DNA of 59,198 nucleotides, the filler included, from Nitrospinae bacterium RIFCSPLOWO2_12_FULL_45_22 (GTDB lineage: Bacteria > 2-12-FULL-45-22), in assembly GCA_001803565.1 (NCBI GenBank). It is 5 parts of 5 records of this genome, joined end to end, with 100 filler letters (N's around TTAATTAATTAA, not from the genome) between each part and the next. Parts side by side here need not be neighbours in the genome. Positions count along the whole stretch, not along the records: positions 1 to 12,429 come from MHDQ01000066.1; positions 12,530 to 25,627 come from MHDQ01000067.1; positions 25,728 to 38,122 come from MHDQ01000068.1; positions 38,223 to 51,155 come from MHDQ01000069.1; 1 more part is not named here. One strand, 5' to 3'. Under the pieces are notes generated by a model. That model ran no database searches and was not told the origin of the DNA. It saw only the letters and a list, made by a program, of their open reading frames with translations. Position 1 is the stretch's first letter, and the number at the start of each line of letters is the position of its first letter. Below, one piece after another: positions 1,455 through 42,957 of the stretch. The position numbers and the translations under genes were made by a program.

Positions 1455-1658
1455 GTAAATTCCTCTAAAAGATATAGCCACGGATACACACGGATAAACA
1501 CCGATTTTTGCCTTCATTGCAAAATTAGCACTAAAAAATTAACCATTAACAAGGGATGGAATTATTTTGAAATGTTAATTGCTAATTTTGCATTTTGCAT
1601 GGAAACGGGTTTTTAGCCCTCTGTGTCTATCTGTGTACATCTGTGGCTAAAAAGTTAC
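1455..1658. repeat. Nested hairpin cassette (empty): outer CACGGAT/CTGTG repeat arms plus inner 13-bp inverted repeat
   Basis: TAGCCACGGATACACACGGAT (1475) pairs with ATCTGTGTACATCTGTGGCTA (ends 1649). Inner TGCAAAATTAGCA (1518-1530) and TGCTAATTTTGCA (1580-1592). Degenerate right end GCTAAAAAGTTAC. Confidence 0.8.
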
Positions 1659-1703
1659 AAAATTTCATTGCTGAGCCCGTAAAGGGTTATGTAAGAGTGA
1701 TTT

Positions 1704-2132
1704 CTACATAGGTTCTATCAGGAAAAGAGGTTCGCCATACTCTACAGGCTGACTATTCTGGGGCAGGATAGCAACTACCCTGCCCCGTGCATCAGCTTCT
1801 ATCTCATTCATCACCTTCATAGCCTCTACAACGCATAATACCTGGCCCTTCTCTACAACATCATCCACTTCGACAAATGGCTCTGCCCCCGGGGATGGTG
1901 CCCGGTAAAAGGTCCCTACAATAGGCGATGTTATTTGAAGAAAATTGTTCTCCTTAGAGGGTTCTCCTGGGATATTATTCTGTTCCCCGGAAGGCTCATG
2001 AGAGGTTATAGGGCCGGGCTCTGGCACCTTTTTTTTCAATTTTATTCTGAATCCATCATGCTCTAACTCAAGCTCAGAGATATTTCTGGACTCGAAGAGA
2101 TCCAGGAGCTCTTTTAGTTCTTGTAAGTTCAT
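1704..2132 (-). CDS. accB: Biotin carboxyl carrier protein
   Basis: ITSPIVGTFYRAPSP and biotinylation motif EAMKVMN; adjacent to accC. Confidence 0.97.
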   Translation of the reverse strand: MNLQELKELLDLFESRNISELELEHDGFRIKLKKKVPEPGPITSHEPSGEQNNIPGEPSKENNFLQITSPIVGTFYRAPSPGAEPFVEVDDVVEKGQVLCVVEAMKVMNEIEADARGRVVAILPQNSQPVEYGEPLFLIEPM

Positions 2133-2150
2133 TACCCTTCTCCTTAAAAA

Positions 2151-3245
2151 CTATCCCCGGACCTGCCAGGAACTATTAATAGCCTGAGTCAATATATGGC
2201 ATCTGCCACCCTTCACCAAGACCATATCTTCTATCCTAACACCACCCCACGAAGGGATATAGATCCCTGGTTCAAGGGTAAAAACCATACCTTCTTTGAT
2301 AACAGAGCCATTATACCATGTTATTACCGGATCTTCATGCACGGCCATGCCTACTCCATGACCAGTACCATGACTGAAATAGTCCCCATAGCCCGCTTCT
2401 TCGATGACTTTGCGGCAACAACCATCTAAATCAACACTATTTATCCCCGGCTCAACCCCTTCTATGGCAGCCTGCTGGGCTTGCAAGACAATCTGGTATA
2501 TCTTTCTCTGTTCAGCCTCTTGCTCAGCAGTAGCCCCAGCCAGGGCAAAAGTACGCGTAATATCAGCATGGTAACCGTTTAAAGTGCATCCCCAGTCAAT
2601 AGTAACTAATTCTCCCGGCCTTAATCCTTTCTCAGACAGTTTCCCATGTGGCATAGCTGAGCGCTCTCCGGAGACCACTATAGTCTCAAAAGGGATCCTT
2701 TCTGCCCCTAATTTCTTCATTTGATATTCCAGTTCTATAGCCAAATCCACTTCTCTGGCCCCGGGCCGGATAAAGTCTTTAATAGTCTCTAATGCCTTAG
2801 CAGCTAATTGGATGGCCTTATCAATAAGCCTTATCTCCCCCTCCTCTTTTACTACCCGAAACTCTTCTATCGCCTTATTAATCGGGATAAGCTCCACGCC
2901 ATTTATCGCCAGGGTCTCCTTTAGCCTATTAAAACTGGAATAGACTAACGCTTCGGGTTCAAATCCTAGCTTCCTAATTTTTACTTCCTTAATTGTCTCT
3001 ATAATAAATTCCAGTTGTTTACCCCGGTATCCCCTCAACTCAAACCCCTTAACCTCTTCCTGGGTTTGAGTGGTGTAACGTCCATCAGCCAGAAATAAGG
3101 CCCGCTGAGCCGTAATTATGATAACCGCTGTAGAACCAGTAAATCCACTCAGATAGTGGATATTATCTATATTAGTGACCAGAAGGCCCTCTACCTCCCA
3201 TTCACTCAGTCTGTCTCTCACCCTATCTAAACGCTGCTTTACCAC
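2151..3245 (-). CDS. Xaa-Pro aminopeptidase (M24 family)
   Basis: Creatinase-type N-domain; metal-binding motifs HGTGHGVG, TLEPGIY and GGVRIED. Confidence 0.93.
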   Translation of the reverse strand: MVKQRLDRVRDRLSEWEVEGLLVTNIDNIHYLSGFTGSTAVIIITAQRALFLADGRYTTQTQEEVKGFELRGYRGKQLEFIIETIKEVKIRKLGFEPEALVYSSFNRLKETLAINGVELIPINKAIEEFRVVKEEGEIRLIDKAIQLAAKALETIKDFIRPGAREVDLAIELEYQMKKLGAERIPFETIVVSGERSAMPHGKLSEKGLRPGELVTIDWGCTLNGYHADITRTFALAGATAEQEAEQRKIYQIVLQAQQAAIEGVEPGINSVDLDGCCRKVIEEAGYGDYFSHGTGHGVGMAVHEDPVITWYNGSVIKEGMVFTLEPGIYIPSWGGVRIEDMVLVKGGRCHILTQAINSSWQVRG

Positions 3246-3293
3246 AAAAATCTTTGTCCTTAGGCCAGTTTTATCATTTGGGGCAAAAATATC

Positions 3294-3544
3294 GTAAGTA
3301 TTCAGTAAACCACGAGATTAACACAAGATTATCACAAGATTTTCTTCCTAATCTCTAAACTCTCCTCGCCAACATTTAGTAGCAAACCAACCCTCTTCCT
3401 GGTAGCCTTCAAATAATTTAAAAGTTGTGCCTCAGCATTAGCTGCACCAATAATCTTTTCAGTTATATCTTTATAGAGCCATTTCTCTTCATTATCTTGG
3501 GTAAATCTTGTGGTTTCATTAAACGGGGTTCAGTGAGTATTTAC
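3294..3544 (-). mobile_element. MITE-like cassette carrying an internally deleted GxxExxY (PD-(D/E)XK-like) gene
   Basis: Ends GTAAGTATTCA...TGAGTATTTAC with CACAAGAT-type repeat arms. Minus strand reads LYKDITEKIIGAA joined to EAQLLNYLKATRKRVGLLLNVGEESLEIRKKIL*. A related inverted copy lies at 17824-18051. Confidence 0.82.
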
Positions 3545-4660: not shown

Positions 4661-4771
4661 GGGTGTGGCTATTTTCTGTCAGAGAGACCCGTAACTCAAC
4701 CCTTCAGGGTTGACCAATCAGGGCTAAAGCCCCGAGTTACACCAACTTTATGACAAAGAATAGCCATACCC
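4661..4771. mobile_element. MITE-like element containing a REP-like doublet
   Basis: 21-bp imperfect TIRs GGGTGTGGCTATTTTCTGTCA / TGACAAAGAATAGCCATACCC, flanked by CAATGATTT / TAATGATTT. Inner inverted palindrome pair at 4691-4740. Confidence 0.7.
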
Positions 4772-4901
4772 TAATGATTTAATGTAATTGTCGAACTGGA
4801 AATAGCATGAAAAGAAAAGATGAGGTGGTGCACGATTCGTCTGCTGTTCATCCTTTTAATCCTCCTCTTAATCCTCCTCATGACTATGCTTTAATGAGAT
4901 T

Positions 4902-6182
4902 TTAGGGGTTCTTAGGTTTTATCTGGAGTTCTAGATCAAGTTTTTCTTTCCGATATTGCATTAACCTATCTCTTTCTTTAGCTAAAGTCAATTTTAGCCC
5001 CCTTAACTGATCTCTAGCTAGGTCTAGTTGGAAGGCGATATTGTCATGCGTTTCTGGTTTGAGCCAGTATAAAGAGAGGAGCTTCTCTGCCGCAGTCCCA
5101 TCAGTAGCCGTAACTGATACCCTCACCTTATTTAAACCCTCGGTTAAGGGTACCAGGGCCAAAAAGAAGCCCTCCGGACTCACCAGCATCTCTGAGGCCG
5201 GTTTGGTCAAGGTAGTGTTCTCTACTAGTATGTTTCGTAGCTTGATAAACCTTGCTTCCTCTAAACGGGTAATGATCTCCCCCAGGTTAGAAAGTCCGGT
5301 AAACTGGCCACCAGTAACCCGGGCTATCTCCTGGAGAGTAAAAGGAGAAGAAAGGGCATCTGGACCCAGGGCATAAGTATTGATTTGTATCCCAGCCATA
5401 TAGGCCAGATGGGCTGCACTGATGGTGAGGATTTTGTCCTCAGGATCGGCTGCATTGGCACTACCTACCGGAAAACTGGGGAAGCCGTCACTAAGGAGTA
5501 GGATGATTTTCTTTGTGCGATCATTGGTATGATAACCTGGCGGTTGAGTATCGCTCATCAGACCCATTAATGCCTCGATTCCTAACCGGATACCCGCTGC
5601 TATGTTGGTTCCTCCACGCGCTCCGTTGGTCTTCATCCTATTCAAGGCTTCAGTTATACGGGCATATTCTTTGGTCAGGGGTTGTTCACAATAAGCATCA
5701 GGCGTGGCAATATTGCTACGGCCACTACCGCCCTTAAAATCACCACTGAAACTGATTAAACCCACCTCAGTAGTATCGGGGTCTAATAGCCGCAGCAATC
5801 TCCGGGCTGCTAAAATCTCTGCCGCAAAAATAGAATCGTCCGGGTCAGTATTACCCTCTCCTATCAGACCTTCTAACTCCCGGTAAAGAGTAGGTGCCCG
5901 GCCAATTACTCCATCGTTATCGAGATCCATCCCACAAGGGGCGGCGGCGCTGCCAGAAGTATCCAGGGCAATGATTACTTCATATTTAATATCCTGGCTG
6001 TCAGTGGTATAGATATAGCCAGAGATCGGGGCAATAGGAGAAGTATAATCTAACTTCATACCCGGTAGAGGAAAGTCAATAACCAGCTCTATCTCAGCTA
6101 AAGAGCTTTTGGGTAAAAGCAAAGTAAGGAAGGTCAATATTAAGGCACAAGAGAACTTTTTTTTTAAAGGGACCTCATTCAT
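4902..6182 (-). CDS. Secreted von Willebrand factor A (vWA) domain protein
   Basis: Signal-peptide-like N-terminus; MIDAS DTSGS, GGTN and LLSDG; Ig-like C-terminal stretch. Confidence 0.88.
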   Translation of the reverse strand: MNEVPLKKKFSCALILTFLTLLLPKSSLAEIELVIDFPLPGMKLDYTSPIAPISGYIYTTDSQDIKYEVIIALDTSGSAAAPCGMDLDNDGVIGRAPTLYRELEGLIGEGNTDPDDSIFAAEILAARRLLRLLDPDTTEVGLISFSGDFKGGSGRSNIATPDAYCEQPLTKEYARITEALNRMKTNGARGGTNIAAGIRLGIEALMGLMSDTQPPGYHTNDRTKKIILLLSDGFPSFPVGSANAADPEDKILTISAAHLAYMAGIQINTYALGPDALSSPFTLQEIARVTGGQFTGLSNLGEIITRLEEARFIKLRNILVENTTLTKPASEMLVSPEGFFLALVPLTEGLNKVRVSVTATDGTAAEKLLSLYWLKPETHDNIAFQLDLARDQLRGLKLTLAKERDRLMQYRKEKLDLELQIKPKNP

Positions 6183-6216
6183 CTTCCCGTTAACCCTTTT
6201 AAACCATAAAAATATA

Positions 6217-6365
6217 GTAAGCGTTCAGTTGTCAGCAGTCAGTCTTCAGCTAAATTAATCGTGAGGCGTAAGGAGTAAGAAAAATTTCTACTCATGCCTT
6301 ACGATAAGTTTTGCTGACCGCTGACAACTGACGGCTCAGCGGTAAATACTACCCTAAACGCTTAT
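6217..6365. repeat. Nested hairpin cassette with IS66-like ends (empty)
   Basis: Starts GTAAGCGTTCAG and ends with degenerate CTAAACGCTTAT. GTCAGCA-type arms pair with CTGAC-type arms; inner GTGAGGCGTAAGGAGT / ACTCATGCCTTACG pair. Confidence 0.7.
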
Positions 6366-6369
6366 TTTG

Positions 6370-7113
6370 TTATTTCAGGAGGTATTTTATGGGGATAGTA
6401 CCCCATTGCTCTTCTTGTGGGGCATCGGGGGGTAAAGGATTAAAACGCCATTTCTTGAGATAGGCCATCATCTCTCCTTCCAAAGTAGGATCACCCCGCC
6501 GGATGGGGATAACCCTACCTATAGCGCCATCAGGCAGGACCCAAAACTTTAGCTCAATCTCTACTATGGCTCTAAGCTGCAGAGAAGGTGGTGGCGGTCT
6601 AAATATTACCTGTCTTTTACCAGCCGGTCCCTTAATCTGCCACGGCTCTTCTACAAGCAACTCTTTTTCTTTCTCAACAGGTATTTCTATCTTCTCAAGA
6701 AGCCGGGCCTCTTCGGCTCCGATAAGTTCTTGAGAGACTTCCGGACTGAGAAAAATCTCTCCCTTTTCGGTAAACATACCAGGGTCTAGGGGTATTTCTG
6801 TGGGTGGTAGAGAAAAAGTTTCTGGTAAATGTATAGTCGGTCTCCGGGTACGTTCCAGCGCTCCTTGCACATCCAGCTCCATACCTTTAGCCCATAGGGT
6901 TTCTGGTTTTATGGGTGGTTCTTGTAGCTTAGCCGCGGGGCTTTGCAGCGCAGATTCGGCTGGTATAAGGATAACTTCCGTGTATCTTGGCTCTGGCAAA
7001 GCATGGAGAGAAAAGCCCGGTACAAACATTAATATATATACATGCAAAAGAGCAGATAGGACAAGAGAGAGCCCCAGAAAGGAATTTTTATTTCTCATCT
7101 CACTGAGCGCCAT
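6370..7113 (-). CDS. tonB: TonB family energy transducer
   Basis: N-terminal TM with SxxLH motif, Pro-rich linker, TonB_C-like end (FWVLPDG...WRFNP); follows exbD. Confidence 0.8.
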   Translation of the reverse strand: MALSEMRNKNSFLGLSLVLSALLHVYILMFVPGFSLHALPEPRYTEVILIPAESALQSPAAKLQEPPIKPETLWAKGMELDVQGALERTRRPTIHLPETFSLPPTEIPLDPGMFTEKGEIFLSPEVSQELIGAEEARLLEKIEIPVEKEKELLVEEPWQIKGPAGKRQVIFRPPPPSLQLRAIVEIELKFWVLPDGAIGRVIPIRRGDPTLEGEMMAYLKKWRFNPLPPDAPQEEQWGTIPIKYLLK

Positions 7114-7519
7114 TCACTGATTTCTTTGGTAAGGCAGCAATGGCTATCCTCTCTATCCCGGCTACCTTTGCTGCATCCATAACCTCTACTACCCGGCCAT
7201 GCAATACTTCTTTATCGGCGCTGATAATCAAAAATGCCTCTTTATTGGCCGTCACTTCTTTCTTCAACTGGGTCTCAAATGCCTTCAGCGGAACCTTTTT
7301 GTCCCGGAAGAATAGGCTACCATCCCTGGTAATAAGGATTACCAGCTCTTTTCTTATGCTAGACTCAATAGTAGTGGCCTTGGGCAGGTCCACTTTTATG
7401 CCGGGCTGGAAGACAAAAGATGAGGTCAGCATAAAAAAGATCAGCAGGAGCAAGACACAATCTACCAGCGGAGTAATATCAAAAGTCGCCCTAACTCTTT
7501 TTCTGCGAGAGAACCACAT
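7100..7519 (-). CDS. exbD: ExbD/TolR biopolymer transport protein
   Basis: DITPLVDCVLLLLIFFM and ADKEV..G.VVEVMD motifs. Confidence 0.92.
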   Translation of the reverse strand: MWFSRRKRVRATFDITPLVDCVLLLLIFFMLTSSFVFQPGIKVDLPKATTIESSIRKELVILITRDGSLFFRDKKVPLKAFETQLKKEVTANKEAFLIISADKEVLHGRVVEVMDAAKVAGIERIAIAALPKKSVNGAQ

Positions 7520-8165
7520 CTTCTCTATCCTTTTCCCAGAATACTTCTAGAATATCCAGCGAGTTTTGTTCCATATCTAAAGTCAAAGAGTCTACCTTAT
7601 TTATAAAATAATTATAAAATAGCTGACTGGGGATGGCTACGGTCAAACCTGCCGCGGTAGTGAGTAATGCCTCCGAGATACCGCTGGCTAAGGCCGTAGG
7701 TTCTCCTACACCCCGTAAGGCAATGGTATAAAAGGCCCGGATCATACCTGTGACAGTCCCTAGCAACCCTAACAGGGGGGCAATGCTAACAATAGTCCCC
7801 AGGGTAGCCAAATGCCTCTCTAATACTCTTACCTCTTGCCGACCTGCTTCACTAACAGCTTCCTTGATTTCAGCTTTAGGCTGGTTAATATTTTTGATGG
7901 CAGCCAGGACAATGCGACTCATAGGAGAAGAGTTTTTTTGGCAAAGCTCTATAATATCTGCGATCCTTTCTATCCGGATTAGATCCTGGACCCTGAACAG
8001 GGTCTCAGGTCTTATTATTCGCCCTCGACGTAAACTGATGAGCCGCTCGATGATTATAGCCAGGGACAATATAGAACAAAAAAGGATGGGATACATTACT
8101 GGCCCACCTTTAATAAATAAGTCTATCAATCTCTCCCCACCAAATATGCCCTCTATCCCTTCCAT
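7491..8165 (-). CDS. exbB: MotA/TolQ/ExbB proton channel protein
   Basis: APLLGLLGTVTGMI and GISEALLTTAAGL motifs. Confidence 0.92.
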   Translation of the reverse strand: MEGIEGIFGGERLIDLFIKGGPVMYPILFCSILSLAIIIERLISLRRGRIIRPETLFRVQDLIRIERIADIIELCQKNSSPMSRIVLAAIKNINQPKAEIKEAVSEAGRQEVRVLERHLATLGTIVSIAPLLGLLGTVTGMIRAFYTIALRGVGEPTALASGISEALLTTAAGLTVAIPSQLFYNYFINKVDSLTLDMEQNSLDILEVFWEKDREDVVLSQKKS

Positions 8166-8183
8166 CTCTTCCTCCTTAAGTAA

Positions 8184-8625
8184 GTTCTAGGTTCTAGGTT
8201 CTAAGTTCTAGGTTCTAGGTTTTCGCAGGTATCTGATAAAACCATTGATAAGATTAATTACAGTATTTGCTTGGTTATAAATACTATCGAACTCTTCTAT
8301 AGAGAGATATTTTCTATCAAGAGCCACGTACATATGACTTTTAACCTCAGATACAGAAGCCCTTGCTATTATCAAGAATTGGATAAATTCCTTATTTGTC
8401 TCTCGATCAAAACCCTCGCTGATATTGGACATCGCCGAGATAGAGGCCCGTCGTATCTGATCCCTTAACCCATAATCGTTAGAAAAGTTACCATTATTAG
8501 AGACATCATAGATCATATTTACCAATTTCCTGGCCTCTCTCCATGCATCTATATCCTCAAACTTCTCTATCTTCATAACCTTACTCCCCTAACTTAGCAC
8601 TTAGCACCTAGAACTTAGAACCTAG
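8184..8625. repeat. Inverted heptamer arrays flanking a four-helix-bundle gene
   Basis: (GTTCTAR)x5 at 8184-8218 and (MACYTAG)x5 at 8591-8625 are mutually complementary. Confidence 0.9.
8208..8576 (-). CDS. Four helix bundle protein (23S rRNA IVP / Avd-like family)
   Basis: FEDIDAW...LRDQIRRASISAMSNISEGF...ARASVSEV signature. Confidence 0.93.
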   Translation of the reverse strand: MKIEKFEDIDAWREARKLVNMIYDVSNNGNFSNDYGLRDQIRRASISAMSNISEGFDRETNKEFIQFLIIARASVSEVKSHMYVALDRKYLSIEEFDSIYNQANTVINLINGFIRYLRKPRT

Positions 8626-11600
8626 AACTTTTTTTCTAGGCGCTCTTTGATCTCGGCAATCTTTTTTTTGACCAATTCTCTCTTTCCCGGATCTTTGCCC
8701 TCCTTTACCACCCTCTGGTAAATACTCAGGGCCTCAGACCATCTTTGTAGTTGTTCATAATTTTGCCCGGCCTTGATCAATGCCTCAGTAGATAGCTCTT
8801 TCTGTTCAGGATAGAGATAAGCCACTTTTAGATACTCTTCTATACCCTTCTGATACTCAGCAGCCCGGGTATAAGAATCGGCCAATTTGAAATGGGCCCT
8901 GGCACTTACTTCCTTATCAGGCGACTGGGTAGCTTTAGCAAACCACTCCTGCGCCTTTGCCAGTTCATTTTTCTCTGTGGATATGTCTCCCAGCGCTAGA
9001 TAGCTCCTGAAAGAATACGGCTCTTGGGGGAAGCTAGCTATCACCTTCTGGAAATAAGCTACCGCCTTATCCTTCTGACCGGATGAATAGAGGCAGGAGC
9101 CAATATAATAGAGGGCCTGGGGCACTAGGGGATGCTGAGAAAATTCTGCAATAAACCGCTCAAACCCATAACTGGCCTTTTGATATTCTCGGAGATAGAA
9201 GTTTGCTTCAGCCGTCTTGAACTGTGCTACTGGCCTGAGGCTACTGGCTGGATAGGATTCCAGGAGGCGCTGATAGGAGCGTAGAGCCGAGGCATAGTCT
9301 TTTGCCTGAAAATCCAATTCGCCTATCTGGAAAAAGGCCTTATCAGCTTCCGGGTTCTGGGGAAATACTTCTATGATAGCTTGATACATCTTCCTGGCTC
9401 CAGCGGTATCGCCTTCGGCTAATTGCTGTTCGCCCATCTGATACCTCAGGGTCATACTGAAGAGATGATGAGAATAACGGGTGAGGAATTTCTGGCTCAA
9501 GTCAAAAAACCCTTTTTTCTGGCCTTGTTGCAGGACGGTCTGGATAATAGCATATTCCGGTTCCGCTATCTGAGGATCAGAAGGATAGCTATTTATGATC
9601 TCCTGATAGGTCTTTAATGCCTGCGTATAATCCTTTTCGTTATAATAAGAATCGCCTATAGCCATCGAGGCCCGGAAGGCATAAGGGCTTTTGGGATAGT
9701 TTATAACCACCTTTTTCAACTCATTCCGCGCCACCGGGTAATTCTTTTGCAGAAAATAAGACATCCCATACCAGTACTGGGCATCATCACTCCATTCGCC
9801 CGGAGGTGACTTGGCTAATAGCCCCTCAAAGGCCCTCCTGGCTTCAGGATAATCCTCTCTTTTATAGCTGATCCACCCTAGTTGAAAAAGGGCTCCCTCC
9901 TGTAGACTACTCTGCGGAAATTGCTGTAAAAATCTCTGGAAATGGGTATAGGCCCGATCATATTCTTTAAGATTAAAATAGCACTCACCCAGCCGGAAAA
10001 GGGCCTCAGGCAGCAAGGTACTGTTAGGATATTTATCTATCAATTGCTGGAACAAGGGGGCGGCTTGTTGCCATTTCTCAGTGCGGTACAAGACCCAGGC
10101 CTTGCCATATAAGGCATAATCGGCCTTCTGTCCTTCAGGCGAGATAGCCCCATAGGCCTGCAGGGCTCGGCTAAACTCCTCTTGCTGGAAGCGGGATTCG
10201 GCCAGCCAGAAATTGGCCTCATCTATAAAAGGTGAGTCCGGGAATAGTTGTAAGAAACCTTCCAGGGCTTGGGCAGCCAGTTGATATTCGCCGGCTTGAT
10301 AATAGGATAAGCCTATACGTAACAGGGCCTTCTGATCAAGCTGTAGCGGCTTAACGCCGGTAGCTAGAAACTTTTCTGACTGGCGATAATACTCTATCGC
10401 CTTATGATACTCTTTGATCTGGTAATGACCTTCGCCTAACAAGAATAAGACCAGGGGCTTCAGGGAACTATCCGGATAATCCTTCAACAACTGACCGAAT
10501 ACCCGGATAGCCTCAGGGAAATCTTTTTGCTCTATCTGATAAGCCCCGACTTCGAATATAGCCTTATCCAGCCAGGGGTCCTGATGAGGGTGTTGAGTCT
10601 GGTAGGTTGACAGGAGGGCGGTAGCTTTAGGCAGATTCTTTAGTCCCAGGTAAGCCCGCATCTTGCCTATCAATACCGAGCCCTGGAAGCCACTCTGGGG
10701 GAAGTGCTTTTCTAGCTCCTCCCAGCTTGCTAATGCCTTAGCAAAGTCCTTTATATTAACCTGAGACCAGCCAATCCCATATAGGGCCCGCTCTGCTAAA
10801 GGGCTTGACGGATATTTTTGCCAATATTCTTCATACCGCCTCAGGGCATTAGGATAATCCCGGGCATAATAGAGACATTCCGCCTGCCAGAACAACGCAC
10901 TGTCCACTAAGGGACTGGTAGGTAATTTTTCTCTCAGCTCTTTAAATGCCTGACTGGCCTCACTAAATTTATCTAAGGTATAAAGGGCACCTCCACGCAA
11001 ATAGTAGCCCGACGAAACCAGGGCCGAGTTATTAACCGAGGAGGCATGCTTAATCACGAGGGCATATGCCTTCTCTGCCTGCAAATAATCCTTTTTTTCT
11101 AGATATGTCCAACCTGAAGAAAGATAGGCATAAGGGATATAGCGATGCTCAGGATGGTCTCTTATCAATTCTTCATAAGCCTTCAGGGCCTGAGCCGGCT
11201 CTTTTCGGTTGCTATACGCCTCACCCAACCAGTAGAGGGCTTCACCCCGGTATCTCCCCTGGCGATATTTACGCAGCAAAGTCTCCCAATTCTTTATCGC
11301 CCCAGTAAAATCCTCTTTCTGGAACTTATGCAACCCGATCTTATAATAGGCCTTTTCCTGTACCAGCAGCTTCATAATAGAGGCAGTTACAGCATTACGA
11401 TAGAACCAGCCGGGGCGCTTCTCCTGCGGAATATCCTTAACTATGGGTGTAGTCTCCAGGAATGCCAGTTCCTGCCTTATATCGGGTCTTTCTTTCTCCA
11501 GGCCATACCATATCTCCTGGGGCTGTAGCTTTTCTTTCTCCTCTTTTAGGACAGTAGTATCCTCACCAATTATTACTACCTCTGGCAACTGGATAGGCTC

Positions 11601-11687
11601 CTGAGCCTTTTTCTCCTGGGCCCAGATGCTCGGGCCAAGGGCAATCAGGATAATAATTACCAGGAAATAAAAGATTCTTTTCCTCAT
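8622..11687 (-). CDS. Large exported tetratricopeptide repeat protein (CpoB/BamD-like repeats)
   Basis: Signal peptide followed by many TPRs with YP.S..A..A motifs. Start is ATG 11687 or GTG 11702. Confidence 0.9.
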   Translation of the reverse strand: MRKRIFYFLVIIILIALGPSIWAQEKKAQEPIQLPEVVIIGEDTTVLKEEKEKLQPQEIWYGLEKERPDIRQELAFLETTPIVKDIPQEKRPGWFYRNAVTASIMKLLVQEKAYYKIGLHKFQKEDFTGAIKNWETLLRKYRQGRYRGEALYWLGEAYSNRKEPAQALKAYEELIRDHPEHRYIPYAYLSSGWTYLEKKDYLQAEKAYALVIKHASSVNNSALVSSGYYLRGGALYTLDKFSEASQAFKELREKLPTSPLVDSALFWQAECLYYARDYPNALRRYEEYWQKYPSSPLAERALYGIGWSQVNIKDFAKALASWEELEKHFPQSGFQGSVLIGKMRAYLGLKNLPKATALLSTYQTQHPHQDPWLDKAIFEVGAYQIEQKDFPEAIRVFGQLLKDYPDSSLKPLVLFLLGEGHYQIKEYHKAIEYYRQSEKFLATGVKPLQLDQKALLRIGLSYYQAGEYQLAAQALEGFLQLFPDSPFIDEANFWLAESRFQQEEFSRALQAYGAISPEGQKADYALYGKAWVLYRTEKWQQAAPLFQQLIDKYPNSTLLPEALFRLGECYFNLKEYDRAYTHFQRFLQQFPQSSLQEGALFQLGWISYKREDYPEARRAFEGLLAKSPPGEWSDDAQYWYGMSYFLQKNYPVARNELKKVVINYPKSPYAFRASMAIGDSYYNEKDYTQALKTYQEIINSYPSDPQIAEPEYAIIQTVLQQGQKKGFFDLSQKFLTRYSHHLFSMTLRYQMGEQQLAEGDTAGARKMYQAIIEVFPQNPEADKAFFQIGELDFQAKDYASALRSYQRLLESYPASSLRPVAQFKTAEANFYLREYQKASYGFERFIAEFSQHPLVPQALYYIGSCLYSSGQKDKAVAYFQKVIASFPQEPYSFRSYLALGDISTEKNELAKAQEWFAKATQSPDKEVSARAHFKLADSYTRAAEYQKGIEEYLKVAYLYPEQKELSTEALIKAGQNYEQLQRWSEALSIYQRVVKEGKDPGKRELVKKKIAEIKERLEKKF

Positions 11688-11739
11688 AGCTAACCTTACC
11701 ACCTAAAATTTATTATCCCCCATTTCAATATTAAAATTA

Positions 11740-11912
11740 GTAACCGTTCAGCCACCAAGGCACTAAGTCACCAAGAAGCTCAAAACTTAAAATGCAAAGT
11801 CTAAAATTAAGGTAATTATTCCTCAGCTTTGCACTTTTAGCTTTGCGTTTTACATTTCCTTGGTGCCCTTGTGTCTTAGTGGCTGATAAAGATTAGCCGG
11901 GTGAACGGTTAC
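11740..11912. mobile_element. IS66-like MITE with nested repeat hairpins
   Basis: Perfect TIR GTAACCGTTCA / TGAACGGTTAC and perfect 8-bp direct repeat TAAAATTA (11732-11739, 11913-11920). CACCAAG/CTTGGTG arms enclose a heptamer hairpin. Confidence 0.9.
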
Positions 11913-11917
11913 TAAAA

Positions 11918-12139
11918 TTATACCGGCTGAGCTGATTCACGATAGATGGCCAGATTAATAATCTGGGTGGGATCTTTTGTTGTCCTTTTACTGGCATCAA
12001 GGATTTCAATATCCACAATTCGTTTATCTTTAGCATAGTCAATGATTATTCCATCTACTTCTAACGAATCATCAATCTCCACATCCGGTAGAATTTCTAT
12101 ATTAAGCAAGTCATGAACTGGATCATACTCTATTTTCAT
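11918..12139 (-). CDS. DUF2283 family protein (putative antitoxin-like)
   Basis: MKIEYDP..D.L.I...IIIDY....IV.IEILDASK pattern. Confidence 0.85.
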   Translation of the reverse strand: MKIEYDPVHDLLNIEILPDVEIDDSLEVDGIIIDYAKDKRIVDIEILDASKRTTKDPTQIINLAIYRESAQPV

Positions 12140-12429
12140 AAATCCCTTTGCCTTCTATTTTTATCATAATATCACAATACAACTCCTTTTCAAAGATAAT
12201 GATAGATAATGGATAGGCAGTTAGGAAGGTTTTAGATAGGGCAACTCCGGGTAGCGAAACCGTGAGTGTCAGAGTTCTCACAAAGAGAAATTTAATCAAG
12301 TGAGAGAACCCTCTTTGATCTTTATATGGGGTAATCTATGGGATCGGTTGCGTTCATGCTAGCTCTAATAGGCTATATTGGAAAAATGTTAGGCAAATGA
12401 AAGTGGACATCGGAATTGTTATGAAATAA

Positions 12430-12529
12430 NNNNNNNNNNNNNNNNNNNNNNNNNNNNNNNNNNNNNNNNNNNNTTAATTAATTAANNNNNNNNNNNNNNN
12501 NNNNNNNNNNNNNNNNNNNNNNNNNNNNN
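12430..12529. other. Artificial contig linker
   Basis: N-run, TTAATTAATTAA (stops in all frames), N-run. Confidence 0.98.
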
Positions 12530-13215
12530 GCCTCCCGGCCAATCTCATCAATAACAATCACCTGGGGCATATGATTCTCCACCGCTTCAATCATTATATC
12601 ATGTTGCAGTTCTGGGTAGGGAACTTGCATGCGGCGTGCCCGGCCAATACCCGGATGGGGAATATCTCCATCGCCAGCAATTTCATTAGAGGTATCCACC
12701 ACCACAACCCTTTTGTCGAATTCTTCACTAAGTACCCGGGCTGCTTCTCGGCACATAGTGGTCTTGCCTACCCCAGGGCGGCCCAGGAGGAGTATGCTCT
12801 GACCGCGCTCTACTACATCCCTGATAATATCCAGGGTACCATAAACCGCCCGACCTATCCGGCAGGTAAGGCCAATTATCCTACCCTGGCGATTCCTGAT
12901 AGCGGATATTCGATGCAGAGTACGCGCAATCCCGGCCCGATTATCTTTGCCAAATTCTCCCACTCTACTCACTATATAATCCAGGTCTTCTGGTGTAACC
13001 TGCCGCTTTAATAAAGCAACTACCCTATTAGGAAAGCGGGCTTCCGGTAACCGGCCCAGGTCTACTACAATCTCTAATAGGTCTTCCGGATCATCCTCCC
13101 GCTCCAGTCCATTCTTTATCTCTCCCGGAAGAACGCCTAGTAGCTCCTCCAGGTTATCAGTTATCGGATAATTTTTAACTTCTGGCCTGGTAATTACCGA
13201 TAAAGATTCTTTCAT
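12530..13215 (-). CDS. Ycf45/SpoIIIAA-like AAA ATPase (3' truncated by contig end)
   Basis: [26 protein letters not shown], Walker [20 protein letters not shown], Walker B VIVIDEIG. Confidence 0.88.
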
Positions 13216-13233
13216 ATCAGCTCTTCCCCTCCC

Positions 13234-13718
13234 GTAACTACTCAATGTAAAATGCAAAATTAGCAATTAGCATTGTAAAATCAATTCTTTCCCTTTGCGG
13301 TAAGAATACTTTTTGCAATGATAGCACATAATTCTTCGCACTCCTGAAGGAGTGGTTCAATACGCTTAGGTGCCACGATGCCGGTCCTGTGGATAACCCG
13401 TAGCCAATAACGTGATTCTTTAAGCTCTTTTAGCACAATACTTAATTTGTGCGTAAAATCTGATCGGGATTCAGCCCCACAAGCTTCTTCGTAATTAGCT
13501 CCGGGAGACGTTCCAGACCGTATAAGTTGTCCCCCAATATGTTTGCTTATGCTTGTCTTTGGTAGAGTATTTACAAGTTTAATAATCCTAATCGCAAAAT
13601 CAATCAAACGCTCAGTAAGATTATCCACTTTATTCTTAATAATTTTAGCTTCATTCATTGCTTATTGCTAATTTTGCAATTTGCGTTTTGACACTTTTTA
13701 TTTTTCATTAGTGGTTAG
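13234..13718. mobile_element. Cassette with an IS66-like left end and heptamer arms carrying an intact four-helix-bundle gene
   Basis: GTAACTACTCAATG at 13234. Arms TGCAAAATTAGCA (13253-13265) and TGCTAATTTTGCA (13666-13678). A degenerate right end CATTAGTGGTTAG lies inside the carB 3' end. Confidence 0.7.
13281..13658 (-). CDS. Four helix bundle protein
   Basis: FAIRIIKL..LP...QLIRSGTSPGANYEEA..AESRSDF.HKLSI.LKEL.ES.YWL signature. Confidence 0.93.
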   Translation of the reverse strand: MNEAKIIKNKVDNLTERLIDFAIRIIKLVNTLPKTSISKHIGGQLIRSGTSPGANYEEACGAESRSDFTHKLSIVLKELKESRYWLRVIHRTGIVAPKRIEPLLQECEELCAIIAKSILTAKGKN

Positions 13719-16700: not shown

Positions 16701-17003
16701 GGTAACAGCAATGTTTAACCCCGTCTGGCCTCCCAGGGTAGGGAGTAGGGCCTCAGGGCGCTCCCGGGCAATGATCTTCTCGACTATCTCCGGAGTAATC
16801 GGCTCGATGTAAGTACGATCGGCCATCTCGGGATCAGTCATGATAGTAGCGGGATTGCTATTGATCAATACTACTTGATAACCCTCTTCTCTCAATGCCT
16901 TACAGGCCTGGGTGCCAGAATAGTCAAATTCGCATGCCTGGCCAATGACAATGGGTCCAGAGCCTATTAGCAATATCTTCCTGATATCTTTTCGCTTAGG
17001 CAA
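13698..17003 (-). CDS. carB: Carbamoyl-phosphate synthase large subunit
   Basis: MPKRKDI...[20 protein letters not shown], two ATP-grasp halves and an MGS domain; contains an in-frame repeat insertion. Confidence 0.98.
15675..15742. repeat. REP-like palindromic repeat inserted in frame in carB
   Basis: GTCATCCCGAGC-[CCTTCG...CTCAGGGCAGGCTCCGCGAAGG]-GGAAGCGAGGAATCT; translated as [22 protein letters not shown]. Confidence 0.75.
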
Positions 17004-17640
17004 GTTGCTCTCCTAACACTACCTCTAAGGCCCGGCGACTGAGCTGCCCTTCCCGGATTAGGGTAGGGGGTAAGGTAGTTACATCAACGATGGAAGAAGC
17101 CCTGTCTGTCCCACACACCCCTCCATCTACTATGAGGTCTATCCCGTCTCCCAGGAAAGTTTCTATTTCCTTGACACTCATCAGGTCGGGCTGGCCAGAT
17201 ATATTAGCGCTGGTGCCGGTTAAGGGCACCTTTGTCTCTTTAAGCAATAGATCAAGGAAGGGGTTTTTGGGTTGCCTGAAGGCTATTTTTGAAGTATTAC
17301 CCAGTAACGAAGGCGGGAGGTTATTTGCAGCTTCAAAGATCAAAGTAAGGGGCCCGGGCCAAAAAATCCTGATGAGCCTTTCTCCTGCTTCTGGTATAGT
17401 CTTTACCCGTCCTTTCAACTGCTCCTTGTCATGTATAAGGAGCAATATAGGTTTAGCGAAATCCCTTTTTTTTATCCGATAAACCCTTTTGATTGCTCTT
17501 TCATCTAGACTGTTTACCGCTATTCCATATAAGGTATCAGTGGGAATGACTACTAATCCCCCCGCTAGAATGGCTGCCACAATCTCCTCTACTAACTCTT
17601 TATTGGGGGAGGATGGATCAATCTTGAGGATTTTTACCAT
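16996..17640 (-). CDS. tsaC: L-threonylcarbamoyladenylate synthase (Sua5/TsaC)
   Basis: PTDTLYG, K.R...KP, FWPGPLT and TSANISG motifs. Confidence 0.93.
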
Positions 17641-17710
17641 GCAAATTATCGGCTAGGCTCTACCCAGCTCAAAAAGAGTCGTTTTTTGTCTAGCTATCAC
17701 TTCGTTTATT

Positions 17711-17740
17711 ATTATACCTTTCTCCTCTATCCTACGTCAA
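17711..17740 (-). promoter_or_regulatory. Sigma-70 promoter for tsaC-carB
   Basis: Minus strand TTGACG-18 nt-TATAAT. Confidence 0.6.
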
Positions 17741-17773
17741 GCCGCCTGGATGGCAAGATGGTCTCTCATCTAC

Positions 17774-17801
17774 TTGACAGGACTTTGAGAGGCAATATAA
17801 T
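17774..17801 (+). promoter_or_regulatory. Sigma-70 promoter for queA
   Basis: TTGACA-16 nt-TATAAT. Confidence 0.7.
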
Positions 17802-34633: not shown

Positions 34634-35164
34634 ATATTTTCTCTATTAGTTGTTTCAAGAGGCTCAATATTTATTAATCTCCATTCATAAGAAACACTCA
34701 TAGACCTATGGGCCAGGAGTGTTTCGTCAAAAAGACACAAAGTAAATTCCTATCAGCTCAAATTAGTCCGGGAGCTGGACCCATGCGGAGGTGATTAGTC
34801 ATTGTTTTAGCTGAAAAGGGATACTTTGAATCTTATCATGCCCTTCTTTTCAAGGGGGAAAATAGGGCGAGATATCCCTTTTGGAATGCTAGCAATCCAG
34901 TAAAAATTGTTAGGCTCATATTTTACTCATTGATTGTGGTTTCTCTTGTCCTACCTAGGTTTATTACTCATGCCATTATAAAAGCCATGATAGTTAAAAT
35001 GAGGAGTGACCGAGCCCTTCCATTGGGCCGGAAGGAGGTGATGTTCTATAGGGAGTCTCAGTTTGCTGACCCAATAACCCTTATCGTGGAGATGGGGAGG
35101 AGTGAATTTGTCCCGGTTGCTGATGTCTATACATAAATTTTGTGAGTAGGAGAGGAGAGAGATT

Positions 35165-35668
35165 ATGAAAAGGTTATTATTACTGATAAGTTTATTTCTG
35201 GGGATTACTCTAGCATTAGCAGGGCAGGCTCAGGCCACATGGTATTGGACCCATGGGCATAGTGGCAAAATACAAGATAGGAGTAAAGTCATTCCCTGGG
35301 CTAACAATTCGATTGAATATGGATGGGGTTTGGATTTTCGGCTGAACCCTTTCAACAATACCTGGGTCCATTTTGCTGTTCCATCTGAAGGCAGCGGTGC
35401 TAAGGGTGTCCGATACATAAGGCTCAAATTCACGACCCAGAGCAATGTCGCTACGGTAACTGCCATCGATGTCTATGACGGTAATGTCATGTTTAAGCAC
35501 TTAGCAGGAAATTGGTTCGGGTCGCAGGACATACAACTGGATTTAGGTCAAAAGTGGAAGATTTCGAGGGCCCTTGGCATTTCAGTCCGAGTTGGTGTTG
35601 GGGATACGGGGTCGGCGCAGTGGTTCCGTTTTATTTTCGTGGGTGCTGACTTTGTACCTTTCCCGTAA
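35165..35668 (+). CDS. Secreted beta-rich protein (DUF6623-like)
   Basis: Signal peptide ending AQA, W.HG and WVHFAVP motifs, AGGAG RBS. Confidence 0.7.
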   Translation: MKRLLLLISLFLGITLALAGQAQATWYWTHGHSGKIQDRSKVIPWANNSIEYGWGLDFRLNPFNNTWVHFAVPSEGSGAKGVRYIRLKFTTQSNVATVTAIDVYDGNVMFKHLAGNWFGSQDIQLDLGQKWKISRALGISVRVGVGDTGSAQWFRFIFVGADFVPFP

Positions 35669-35975
35669 AATTATTGACCAACATTATCCACCTCCACGAT
35701 AAGGGTAACAATTAAACCTGGATCCAAAGCGGTGCGCGAATCGCAGGACAAAACCATTAATGAGTAAGGCCAAAGGCCGGCTTTATATAAGAGGCGCATA
35801 TTGAAGGACATGAAGAAAGAGGATCAACCCTGAACCAATGCAGATTTAAAATTGGAAGAATCACATCCTAAAACTGTTTGTTTATCTTGAGGTCATCCAT
35901 CATTTCGTCATGACGGTTCTTCGCCGATACTTTTAAGGGTAAGCATGTCATATGATAAAGGCATAGTGGATAACG

Positions 35976-40971: not shown

Positions 40972-41061
40972 TAGGTCATTAGGTAGGGGAAGGATTCATT
41001 TCCCAATAGACGGAAATTTACACGAGATCCCAGAGGTGTACGTTATGAAGTGGACTGTTCC

Positions 41062-42231
41062 TTATATTTTCAGGATATTTATGGTGACGGAGGAGACTTC
41101 GGCTAGCTCCAGGCTCTCCTGGAAGCCACCAGCGCAATGGGTAAGACCTATGCGGGCACCGGCTACTTGCCGTTCACCAGCTTGCTGCCGGAGTTGCCAG
41201 ACTATCTCGGCTATCTGGGCAATACCGGTAGCACCCAGGGGATGCCCTTTGGATAATAGCCCACCACTGGTATTAACCGCTACTTTACCACCGATCTGAC
41301 TGTGTCCTTCAGCAATAAATCTACCACCCTCACCTTTAACACAGAAGCCCAGGTCTTCATAATGGACGATCTCGGCCGGGGTAAAGCAGTCATGCACCTC
41401 AGCAACATCAATATCTTGCGGGCCGATCCCTGCCCGCTCATAGGCTTCCTGAGCGCCTTTGACGGTTGCACCCAGTGAGGTTATCTCCCGCCCTTGCTTA
41501 TATTCCCCGGAACGTAGGACTGATGCGGCTACAGTGATGGGTTTAGAGGAGTATTTTTTCGCTATCTTTTTACTGGCCAGGATAGCAGCAGCCCCACCAT
41601 CACCCGTCGGGCAACAACTGAGCAAGGTTAAGGGCTCGACTATTACTGGGGCATGCAAGACCTCTTCAATGGTTACTTCTTTACGGTACTGAGCCCGGGG
41701 GTTGTAGCAGGCATTCTTGCGGTTCTTTACCGCTACCATGGCCAGTTGCTCACGGGTAGTGCCAAAGTCGTACATATGGCGCATAGCCATCTGGGCAAAA
41801 AAGGTTGGGGGTGAAAAGCCCATAGCGGTCAATAGCTCTACACCGTCCGAGGTCAGTGGTTTACCCTTGGTGGCCCGGGCCGTAAGCTGCTCTACACCAA
41901 TAGCCAGCACCAGGTCATATAGGCCAGAGGCAACGGCTAACCAGGCATCCCGAAAGGCCGTGGAGCCACTGGCACAGAAGTTACCTACGCTAGAGATAGG
42001 TATGCCTGAGATGCCCAGTTCCCAGAGGATAGATTGGCCTACACCACACTCGCGGCCCAGGAGCCTACCGGTACGGGCATGGCCACAATAAGCCGCCTCG
42101 ATAGCCGTAGGAGGAATATTGGCATCTTTGATGGCTTCCCAGCAGGATTCGCGGCCTAGCGCTAAGATACTTTTATCTGGAAACTTACCAAATGGGGTCA
42201 TCCCCACACCAATAACATATGCTTCACGCAT
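41062..42231 (-). CDS. Thiolase family protein (SCP2/SCP-x type)
   Basis: GVGMTPFG, N.CASGS, DGGAA, AEVHDCF and SGGLLSKGHPLGATG. Confidence 0.92.
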   Translation of the reverse strand: MREAYVIGVGMTPFGKFPDKSILALGRESCWEAIKDANIPPTAIEAAYCGHARTGRLLGRECGVGQSILWELGISGIPISSVGNFCASGSTAFRDAWLAVASGLYDLVLAIGVEQLTARATKGKPLTSDGVELLTAMGFSPPTFFAQMAMRHMYDFGTTREQLAMVAVKNRKNACYNPRAQYRKEVTIEEVLHAPVIVEPLTLLSCCPTGDGGAAAILASKKIAKKYSSKPITVAASVLRSGEYKQGREITSLGATVKGAQEAYERAGIGPQDIDVAEVHDCFTPAEIVHYEDLGFCVKGEGGRFIAEGHSQIGGKVAVNTSGGLLSKGHPLGATGIAQIAEIVWQLRQQAGERQVAGARIGLTHCAGGFQESLELAEVSSVTINILKI

Positions 42232-42313
42232 TGTTCTATCCCTCGCTATGTTTTAATATCTTAATAAGCACTCGTCGCAGAAGCACAGGGAGCTGTGGTT
42301 CACGCTGAATAAG

Positions 42314-42781
42314 TCACAGCAGATTAAACTTTTTCAGGGCCTCTGCTACCCTACTATCCGCTTTTGCTATCTCCCGCAGAGAATTGATAAGGCTCTTTAA
42401 CCCCTTCTCATCCATCTCTTCTATCTTTTCCTCTAGCTCCTTCGTCTTAGCTTCAAAGGGCCTGATCATCGTCCTCCGGTCCCAGATAGCAAAGCCTATG
42501 GTAAAGACCGTCAAAGCAGTAAATATCCCGCTAATGATCCAGAGAAAGGTAAATAGCTGCTCGAACCTTTTATCTACCGAGTCCTTAAATTCTCCAAACC
42601 TTTTATCTACCTGCTCGAACCTTTTATCTACCGAGTCCTTAAATTCCTTAAGGGTAGCCTCCAGCCTTATAAGCCGGTCTCTATCCTGCAGGGTAAAGGG
42701 TACCTCTTGTGCCCATATCGGACTACTCATACCCATAAGCCAGAAGAAAAGAAATACTTTGGTAAACGTTCTTAGCGCCAT
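42314..42781 (-). CDS. Hypothetical coiled-coil membrane protein with internal repeats
   Basis: Signal-like N-terminus, EFKDSVDKRFEQ twice (54-bp period), TM, WDRRT..RP. Confidence 0.8.
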   Translation of the reverse strand: MALRTFTKVFLFFWLMGMSSPIWAQEVPFTLQDRDRLIRLEATLKEFKDSVDKRFEQVDKRFGEFKDSVDKRFEQLFTFLWIISGIFTALTVFTIGFAIWDRRTMIRPFEAKTKELEEKIEEMDEKGLKSLINSLREIAKADSRVAEALKKFNLL

Positions 42782-42799
42782 CTTGACCTATCCTATTTT

Positions 42800-42957
42800 G
42801 TAACAGTTCACGGGGATCAGTTGCCAGGGTTCAGGAAAATACTTTAAATTTCAAGAATTATCGATATTTGGAGGTTGTGATAGGGTTTAATAGCACTCTA
42901 GAGGTCTTTGAAAAAAGCCCCTCTGACAACTGATCCCTGACCCCTGTGAACTGTTAC
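42800..42957. mobile_element. IS66-like MITE with heptamer arms and a possible four-helix gene relic
   Basis: Perfect 12-bp TIR GTAACAGTTCAC / GTGAACTGTTAC with GGGATCAGTTG / CAACTGATCCC arms; no 8-bp duplication. Confidence 0.8.

Follow-up and report, generated by a model that had tools for sequence, protein, structure and literature searches.

Inverted word arrays around small genes, and IS66-type miniature elements, as two probably independent and nesting kinds of mobile DNA in a Nitrospinae genome

What are the hairpin-forming elements that lie between ordinary genes of Nitrospinae bacterium RIFCSPLOWO2_12_FULL_45_22, and how are they related to the small genes that some of them enclose? 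The question arises from a stretch of 59,198 bases (hereafter the window), made of contigs C66, C67, C68, C69 and onward joined by N runs around TTAATTAATTAA, whose genes are housekeeping and flagellar ones (accB, accC, tolQ/R, tonB, carB, tsaC, queA, hisC, fliS, fliD). The first-pass annotation listed 14 intergenic elements there and proposed that they share one design, in which inverted arrays of short tandem repeats, optionally closed by GTAA...TTAC ends, surround a four-helix-bundle gene, a deleted gene remnant, another hairpin or nothing. We examined these elements in the window, in the whole assembly (3.67 Mb, 321 contigs, 45% G+C, 85% complete) and at comparable loci of other genomes; C-numbers denote contigs of the analysed genome, also labelled G000, and L-numbers denote loci examined. 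Our reading, which we regard as probable, is that two independent, non-autonomous kinds of mobile DNA nest in each other here: MITEs (miniature inverted-repeat transposable elements) related to the insertion sequence (IS) family IS66, and foldback cassettes built from inverted word arrays around a tiny gene or its remains.

The common design held for most of the listed elements. Fold energies were compared with those of dinucleotide-type shuffles, a fold counting as strong if z was at most -3 for one or both strands, and 12 of the 14 elements (1455, 3294, 6217, 8184, 11740, 13234, 17824, 19235, 20378, 23127, 24846 and 42800) folded strongly, with weak folds at 18061 (z 0.2/-2.6) and 22801 (z -1.8). 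Tandem Repeats Finder and an inverted-repeat scan placed inverted tandem arrays with units of 7-11 nt at the listed positions; the three longest 'palindromes' returned by the latter were the N/TTAATTAATTAA linkers and not biology. Genome-wide we counted 2007 tandem arrays, most commonly of period 7 (453), followed by 8 (314), 9 (265) and 10 (209). When arrays of period 7-11 were merged (n = 1404), 338 had an inverted partner and 66 a direct partner, a partner being an array within 1.5 kb at a score of at least 12. These yielded 165 left-right inverted pairs, with a loop of at most 150 nt in 132 and a small second mode of 8 pairs at 350-450 nt, which is the size of a small gene. The short-loop hairpins were largely intergenic (119 of 132, in a genome with a proxy coding fraction of 82%), many array hairpins exactly filled the space from one gene's stop codon to the ribosome-binding site of the next, and 98 of the 132 had at least one further genomic copy, with at least 10 copies for 32 of them.

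The suggested tie between this geometry and two families of small genes was borne out across the genome, which holds nine genes for four-helix-bundle proteins above cut-off plus one fragment, and five near-full genes, seven C-terminal remnants and one N-terminal remnant for GxxExxY proteins. In flanking inverted-repeat score, 8 of 9 four-helix genes reached at least 16, as did 4 of 5 GxxExxY genes, the remaining one scoring 15.5; of 367 control open reading frames (ORFs) of 90-200 aa, 1 did. Among all ORFs of up to 400 aa, 22 of 2043 reached this score, and those beyond the two families included one gene each for a DUF559 protein, a GIY-YIG protein and an IS200-like Y1 transposase. The association extends to other genomes, where 20 of 24 loci with four-helix genes scored at least 12, compared with 1 of 47 shifted controls, and 15 of 19 GxxExxY loci did so too. 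Within the window the centres were, as had been described, intact four-helix genes in two cases (minus strand, 8208-8576 and 13281-13658), gene remnants, further hairpins or nothing. The two remnants are of GxxExxY and not of four-helix genes (3341-3439 on the minus strand and 17912-18004 on the plus strand); no intact GxxExxY gene lies within the window.

Among solved structures the four-helix protein matched 2gsc and 2rld only, and no sequence match was found for the GxxExxY protein, which is a PD-(D/E)XK protein of PF13366 (151 bits). PF13366 is entered in PMC3424549 as a PD-(D/E)XK family that has undergone multiple transfers and whose function is unknown. Four-helix proteins are, according to accessible portions of the respective articles, related to Avd of diversity-generating retroelements (DGRs) (PMC10053308), encoded between cas genes and counted as cas-associated in a survey (PMC3936711), and encoded in rRNA insertions of candidate phyla radiation bacteria (PMC11270868). 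A DGR reading of the four-helix genes was rejected here: the sole RVT_1 match lies on C291, where there is no four-helix gene, and those in the window have tolQ, a TPR gene and carB as their neighbours. One further four-helix cassette (G000:C129:1-660, L027) follows an apparent tRNA 3' part, truncated where the contig ends, and precedes tRNA-Ser(GCT), and so appears to lie in a spacer of stable-RNA genes.

The GTAA-ended layer is an ordinary MITE family of a known IS family. IS66 elements in ISfinder have GTAA-starting ends and 8-bp duplications. In our genome the ends GTAA NN GTTCA and TGAAC NN TTAC, 60-450 bp apart, formed 102 left-right pairs versus 10 left-left pairs, and the flanking 8-mers of the 102 pairs were identical (8/8) in 34 and matched at 7/8 in 8, while controls offset by 8 nt never reached 6/8. 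The 42 elements with duplications measure 63-267 bp. Elements of this kind, roughly 60-270 bp in size, have terminal inverted repeats of 11-14 bp (e.g. GTAAC[C/A]GTTCA) and are present in about 100 copies, with three types of end, GTAACCGTTCA, GTAACAGTTCA and GTAAGCGTTCAGC, plus GTAA..GTTTAGCC. In the window, inverted ends starting with GTAA are present at 11740, 17824 and 42800, so that the optional ends of the original description are real on some elements (e.g. 11740-11912 and 17824-18051), and its assignment of such shells to IS66-type MITEs with 8-bp duplications agrees with the 34 perfect pairs. The window MITEs have copies on other contigs and are small, multi-copy and without a transposase.

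A candidate source of transposase was found in part. The sole PF03050 (IS66-family) match, on C275, has GTAACCGTTCACCC at its left boundary, where it shares the GTAACCGTTCA sequence with MITE ends, but the gene is truncated after about half of its DDE domain (positions 5-165 of 284) and continues into an HD domain, so that the search for an IS66 element with matching terminal inverted repeats gave one matching boundary and no intact copy. This frame (G000:C275:12283-13971, L007) is either an in-frame fusion by deletion or the product of a chimeric contig. Directly downstream of it lies an 11740-type MITE with its own duplication, AAGAAAGA. For IS66 relatives from other phyla, 16 loci were fetched and 10 examined for ends; five had inverted ends (elements of 1.9-2.0 kb; ends such as GTAACAGTCCAGC, GTAATAGTTTAGCC and GTAATTATTTAGT), two of these five with 8/8 duplications. 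Heptamer arrays as intrinsic IS66 ends were rejected, as no such arrays lie inside the five relatives with recognisable ends. In two Planctomycetia relatives (L014, L016), the first 70 nt of the ends hold GTCATTGCGAG...GAAGCAATCT modules immediately inward of the terminal repeats; these modules have variable inner stem-loops and fill many MITEs of our genome (30 plus-strand and 26 minus-strand matches), and a related word, GGAATGAC, flanks the genome's GIY-YIG gene.

How do the two kinds of element come to share a locus? MITE interiors are stacked hairpin modules that are also found alone, and are not transposase remnants; copies of the GTAAGCGTTCAGC subfamily agree in their end and in three (N)TCAGC units and vary in the centre. 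Composites of the 1455 type consist, from the outside inwards, of IS66-type ends, CACGGAT-type arrays and a hairpin with arms like those of the four-helix cassette at 13234, whose loop looks similar, by eye, to the sequence immediately after the stop codon of the four-helix gene in that cassette. This inner hairpin has 18 copies, some within the composite and some outside. Copies of a GxxExxY shell family (C96, C64, C67, C66, C297, C114) make up a series of deletions that starts with a 114-aa ORF and ends with remnants of 31-37 aa; the family's gene is truncated throughout, and its flanking duplications are perfect (8/8) in two and nearly so (7/8) in one of five assessable copies. The GxxExxY-remnant family and the 1455 composite family demonstrate that foldback cassettes are carried as passengers, the former also providing deletion derivatives. 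Other insertions into hairpin centres were seen as well, namely a 27-nt mini-palindrome in the innermost loop of 11740-type MITE copies on C275, C132 and C223, and a 113-nt palindrome inside a 123-bp MITE.

Carriage in such shells accounts for a minority of hairpins. GTAA-type ends stood on both sides of 7 of the 165 array hairpins and on one side of 26, as against 0 and 24 of 825 random places; with such an end near only 33 of 165, IS66 shells are enriched but a minor, secondary vehicle, and their first-pass role as the general means of dispersal did not hold up. At GxxExxY loci of other genomes a GTAA-type shell was found in 1 of 19 cases, and an intact foreign GxxExxY gene with GTAACTAT.. 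ends had a flanking identity of 6/8. Four-helix flanks inspected by eye, with no systematic scan, included none with GTAA-type ends on both sides.

The arms themselves show how the arrays change. One extra 8-nt unit follows position 19233 in one contig each of runs X2 and X8 (two of four metagenome runs), so arrays change by whole units in nature. Permuting unit order in one arm left complementarity almost the same (17.6 observed versus 16.9 permuted); of 113 arms, 11 did better than 95% of permutations and 64 were no higher than the median range. Unit order is thus not mirrored, and the arms are inverted arrays of a shared degenerate word and not mirror copies. The arms of four-helix cassettes use words that are unrelated from locus to locus, in this and in other genomes. 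Those of GxxExxY cassettes are variants of one word (CACAGAG, CACAAAG, CGCAGAT, CACGGAT, CACGAAG), here and in unrelated genomes, in an orientation that is fixed relative to the gene.

In the model that we favour, the first kind of element would be MITEs of a single-ORF IS66-family transposon, presumably moved in trans by an IS66 transposase. The second would be a foldback cassette in which two inverted arrays of 7-11-nt words surround a tiny gene for either a four-helix-bundle protein (PF05635/TIGR02436) or a GxxExxY PD-(D/E)XK nuclease, or a deletion derivative of such a unit. These cassettes lie in the gap from a stop codon to the following ribosome-binding site, co-oriented with the upstream gene, where the cargo gene is probably expressed by read-through; their arrays turn over through unit slippage, and they also lodge inside IS66-type shells and other hairpins and are then copied as passengers, as the two families above show. 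Our best guess, based on the conserved arm word of GxxExxY cassettes, is that the cargo protein recognises the arms at the DNA level. The stem in the transcript would then be a by-product that RNase III could cut, as in 23S rRNA intervening sequences (IVSs), and such cutting would make insertions into operons tolerable. More broadly, foldback cassettes may constitute a selfish class that spans phyla, whose cargo reads its own words (CRCNRAK for GxxExxY), which gave rise to the ORF-bearing rRNA IVSs and which explains the excess of intergenic 7-9-nt repeats, with hitch-hiking in the IS66-type MITEs of this genome as a first concrete route of spread; we put this wider view forward tentatively and consider it somewhat doubtful.

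Several observations weigh against the model of two nesting kinds. No empty-site ortholog of the sort envisaged in the first-pass annotation was found for any element in a DNA search of 30 relatives, in metagenome contigs or in four metagenome runs: a contig scan with QueA returned only the window's own contig and two distant loci, and the four runs contained no exact joint that excises a cassette with its duplication. The lineage is thinly sampled, since one of the 30 'relatives' belongs to the same order (and gave no match) and the others share the domain only. Two records with replaced centres join 13258 to 13670 (36 letters between) and 17869 to 18002 (24 letters between), and these may be paralogous copies or alleles. 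The 85%-complete assembly contains no intact IS66 transposase, and 132 of the 165 array hairpins have no GTAA-type end nearby. Co-orientation of intact cargo with the upstream gene, which usually lies 14-130 nt away, was complete among assessable cases (13 of 13; most, in the first-pass annotation) but is only marginal against a background of 79%. The motif CRCNRAK was written after the counted loci had been viewed, which makes its count partly circular; at the 19 GxxExxY loci of other genomes its matches number 41 upstream in sense and 50 downstream in antisense orientation, versus 8 and 14 in controls. Finally, arm mismatches on the sense strand showed no excess of G·U over A·C (72 versus 62 in all; 29 versus 22 in this genome, 28 versus 23 and 15 versus 17 in other genomes).

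The last of these bears mainly on the RNA cassette system proposed in the first-pass annotation, in which small genes would be looped out of operon mRNAs by their stems with the help of RNase III, IS66 MITE shells being the main means of dispersal, and which we consider rather unlikely. Roughly 20 public runs from 15 studies contain this organism, and no RNA run with the sequence was among those listed. Stems do close around whole genes on the coding strand (-135 kcal/mol, z -3.1 for the cassette at 8181-8630), but the opposite strand also forms a closing stem and folds about as significantly (z -3.5 for 8160-8650). In 14 of 21 cassettes the duplex is energetically more favourable on the sense strand (Wilcoxon p = 0.03), a bias that we give little weight because long duplex alignments over-extend and the mismatch count is symmetric. 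Transversions dominate the arm mismatches (176 'other' in the same counts), and the small effect of unit permutation (11 of 113 arms above 95%) likewise speaks against an RNA system. The idea that stop codons in the units serve to close every one of the three frames of the gene upstream was discarded, since 5' arms close them less often than 3' arms do (23 versus 42 of 87 co-directional cases, p = 0.025). In favour of an RNA system are the 13 of 13 co-oriented cargo genes, the cassette beside the tRNA-Ser gene and after the apparent 3' part of another tRNA, the presence of an RNase III gene (rnc) in the genome, and in vitro cutting by RNase III of the heptamer-containing S23p IVS stem of Coxiella, described in the part of PMC4990558 at hand. 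The scarcity of shells (a GTAA-type end at 33 of 165 hairpins, and a shell at 1 of 19 foreign GxxExxY loci) speaks against MITEs as its main vehicle. Long stems might loop genes out of mRNAs; since the strand-asymmetry tests do not support selection on the transcript, we keep RNase III cutting as a likely by-product and not as the purpose.

Homing would explain the same loci through the cargo proteins: nucleases (GxxExxY; DUF559 or GIY-YIG at other loci) would cut palindromic word arrays or extruded cruciforms, and repair templated by a gene-bearing copy would install the cassette. Hairpins without a gene would then be either targets or copies in decay, and cutting at hairpin centres would account for the nesting. 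The PD-(D/E)XK assignment, the arm word and orientation kept across unrelated genomes, the nuclease folds among other small ORFs flanked by inverted repeats (DUF559, GIY-YIG) and the insertions at hairpin centres described above all fit such a process. We nevertheless think it quite improbable, as four-helix proteins have no known nuclease activity yet are packaged alike, the arm words of their cassettes are not conserved, and the gene-less copies of one family seem, by eye, to retain the stretch adjacent to the four-helix stop codon, as deletion derivatives would. That the hairpins are host regulatory structures (terminators, attenuators or REP-like stabilisers of mRNA) and the small genes incidental is very hard to credit. 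Their intergenic placement, the exact fit of many between stop codon and ribosome-binding site, and the position of one between a promoter-like site and queA would suit regulation, but array hairpins coincide with none of the 30 sites in 6000-25600 that look like terminators, T tails are missing from the arms, the junctions occupied (75 co-directional, 13 convergent, 9 divergent) follow the genomic background, and an Rfam search of the window returned no match to any family, rRNA or other. Duplications, multi-copy families, gene remnants and unit-number polymorphism are instead marks of mobile DNA.

The model of two nesting kinds joins elements that each resemble something known. With IS66-family MITEs and with mobile insertion cassettes (MICs), such as MIC231 of Bacillus cereus, the shells share GTAA-starting ends, 8-bp duplications, lack of a transposase, many copies, an intergenic bias and passenger DNA; unlike them, they have interiors made of unrelated hairpin modules and GxxExxY remnants instead of deleted transposase genes, and the assembly holds no intact cognate IS. 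Eukaryotic foldback (FB) transposons have long inverted termini of short tandem subrepeats in variable number, and share with the cassettes a centre that is a gene, other sequence or nothing, an analogy of form only given the different host domain. Repetitive extragenic palindromes (REPs) and the REPINs built from them are likewise dispersed intergenic palindromes; REPINs have one conserved sequence per REP-associated tyrosine transposase (RAYT) and no duplications, whereas here there are many unrelated unit sequences, arms of tandem words and, in the shelled subset, 8-bp duplications. The genome gave five matches to RAYT-like Y1 transposase genes, one of them flanked by an inverted repeat.

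Tandem heptamers themselves were reportedly described as short tandemly repeated repetitive (STRR) sequences by Mazel in 1990, and small dispersed repeats are said to have been treated by Elhai in 2008; as among cyanobacterial repeats, very small palindromes insert into other repeats here. The heptamers of cyanobacteria and Xanthomonas, treated in the available part of PMC4692102 as G-quadruplex-forming arrays, are like ours in being 7-nt units of variable number that are over-represented between co-oriented genes; ours differ from what that part describes in not being G-rich and in forming inverted pairs around genes (inverted to direct, 338 to 66).

ORF-bearing 23S rRNA IVSs, which occur in Leptospira too, come closest to the foldback cassettes. 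In Coxiella burnetii, as set out in the accessible sections of PMC4990558, a 28-bp stem surrounds the S23p ORF and contains tandem GACAGAT heptamers; the shared features are the PF05635 gene, the inverted repeats that form a long stem, and tandem heptamers in the 5' arm, of strain-variable number there, in an element regarded as selfish. Unlike 23S IVSs, the cassettes here lie between protein-coding genes and beside a tRNA gene and not in rRNA helices; both four-helix cassettes of the window are between protein-coding genes, outside any 23S rRNA gene, whose helices 9, 25 and 45 are the IVS sites. They differ further in that both arms are whole word arrays, in having a second, unrelated cargo (GxxExxY) and in their many gene-less copies. 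The IS66 MITEs thus belong to a known kind, and the foldback cassettes resemble the IVS kind but are outside rRNA. No description of a gene-plus-word-array cassette outside rRNA was found in the literature searched, which left subscription journals largely outside.

To this the genome adds a route by which some copies are demonstrably dispersed (in IS66-type shells that have target duplications), a series of deletions leading from a gene to a hairpin without one, three-layer nesting together with unit-number polymorphism in the population, and a negative result for the popular RNA-stem reading; the route, the series and the negative result point experiments to DNA recognition by the cargo proteins. 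The four-helix-bundle ('23S IVS') and GxxExxY proteins are very large families for which we know of no function, and to our knowledge the intergenic tandem heptamers of bacteria have been unexplained for decades. If both families and the heptamers belong to one kind of insertable cassette, three annotation puzzles become one testable system. Such elements also break assemblies and can be mistaken for regulatory hairpins.

Within the window, the two intact foldback cassettes are similarly placed. At 8181-8630 (minus strand), between a TPR gene (8622-11702, minus) and tolQ (7491-8165, minus), GTTCTAG arrays at 8181-8221 and 8591-8630 (40 nt, 85%) enclose the four-helix gene at 8208-8576, which is intact (TIGR02436, 110.5 bits, also PF05635), and the first array unit contains the stop codon of the upstream gene. 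At 13234-13690 (minus strand), between carB (13698-17003, minus) and an ATPase-like ORF of 262 aa, arrays of GCAAAAT/TAGCAAT occupy 13244-13275 and 13656-13687 and enclose the likewise intact four-helix gene at 13281-13658 (TIGR02436, 96.6 bits, also PF05635), and GTAAC is present on one outer end only. The three-layer composite at 1455-1660 lies between accB (encoding the biotin carboxyl carrier protein; 1704-2132, minus) and accC (biotin carboxylase; 110-1501, minus). Its GTAA...GTTAC ends are degenerate, its outer arrays are CACGGATAAA at 1479-1505 and TCTGTGTCTA at 1620-1649, and its inner hairpin of four-helix-cassette type at 1518-1600 is one of the 18 copies mentioned above (whole element, dG -59.6, z -5.7).

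Two shells carry GxxExxY remnants. The GTAA-ended MITE-like shell at 3294-3544 (minus strand), with inverted arrays of CACAAGATT type around the C-terminal remnant, has flanking 8-mers that agree at 5/8 positions only, and copies on C67, C114 and C64 (77-80%). The MITE at 17824-18051 (plus strand), with CACAAGATTT arrays around the other C-terminal remnant, has a perfect 8/8 duplication, GGCATCCT, at 17816-17823 and 18052-18059. A 12/12 match to the sigma-70 consensus (TTGACA, 16 nt, TATAAT) lies at 17774-17801 on the plus strand, 22 nt before this MITE, which would thereby sit in the queA leader.

Among the remaining MITEs, the IS66-type one at 11740-11912, with ends GTAACCGTTCA...TGAACGGTTAC (z -7.0), has a perfect 8/8 duplication, TAAAATTA, at 11732-11739 and 11913-11920, an interior of two nested word-array hairpins, and copies on C320, C174, C291 and C21. 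A GTAAGCGTTCAG-type MITE at 6217-6353 (z -8.1) has (N)TCAGC heptamer arms, an inner CGTGAGG/CGTAAGG hairpin and a degenerate right end. At 42800-42957, an IS66-type MITE of the GTAACAGTTCACGGGG subfamily (z -6.4) has its outermost 14 bases perfectly inverted and no clear duplication, its flanks matching at 2/8. The degenerate IS66-type MITE at 20378-20526 (z -5.2) starts with GCAACCGTTCAGCC... on the left and has a decayed right end, with GTGAGCA/GTAAGGA units in its inner hairpin, and a probable solo half of the same type, consisting of a single array arm plus GGTCTTTGTGCC...GAATGGTTAT, lies at 22795-22865 (z -1.8). About 43 nt at 22755-22797 (ACAAAACCGCATTAATAAAATGAAAATTCC...) reached a summed contig depth of up to 8742 in the metagenome runs, versus about 15 around it, and many contigs diverge on both sides; it is thus a very abundant dispersed repeat, possibly common to other organisms, and on C302 an ORF is flanked by a similar word.

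Gene-less hairpins are found at 19230-19322 (AAGGAATC units, between the convergent queA and hisC; z -8.0), at 23127-23210 (GAATTCA units, flanked by genes for a DVU0524-family protein and a response regulator; z -5.5) and at 24846-24925 (8-nt units GGTAATTG / AATAACCT, between fliS and fliD; z -4.4). The weak member at 18061-18165 consists chiefly of TATTCGTG units in tandem on one side (18125-18149), which face a single distal copy in inverted orientation.

Some small repeats stand apart from these elements. A 113-nt palindromic element at 4661-4773 (GGGTGTGGCTATTTTCTGTCAGAG...CCACACCC) is a second kind of MITE, unrelated to the IS66 type; its 99% copy on C148 lies inside a 123-bp IS66-type MITE and has an apparent 10-11-nt duplication (TTTTCGATAGG/TTTTCTATAGG). 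Mini-palindromes of 20-27 nt with the pattern CCTG[T/C]CTG...CAG[G/A]CAGG number 43 in the genome, none of them in the window, versus 0 in a scrambled control. They form loop insertions without duplication in some MITE copies (e.g. G000:C275:14050-14080) and are lacking in paralogues, and they resemble the very small dispersed repeats of cyanobacteria. Lastly, at 35077-35706 a 19-nt inverted repeat (95% complementary) surrounds a 167-aa ORF (35165-35668, plus strand), which has no Pfam match and a signal-peptide-like start and may represent a further, different type of small gene enclosed by repeats.

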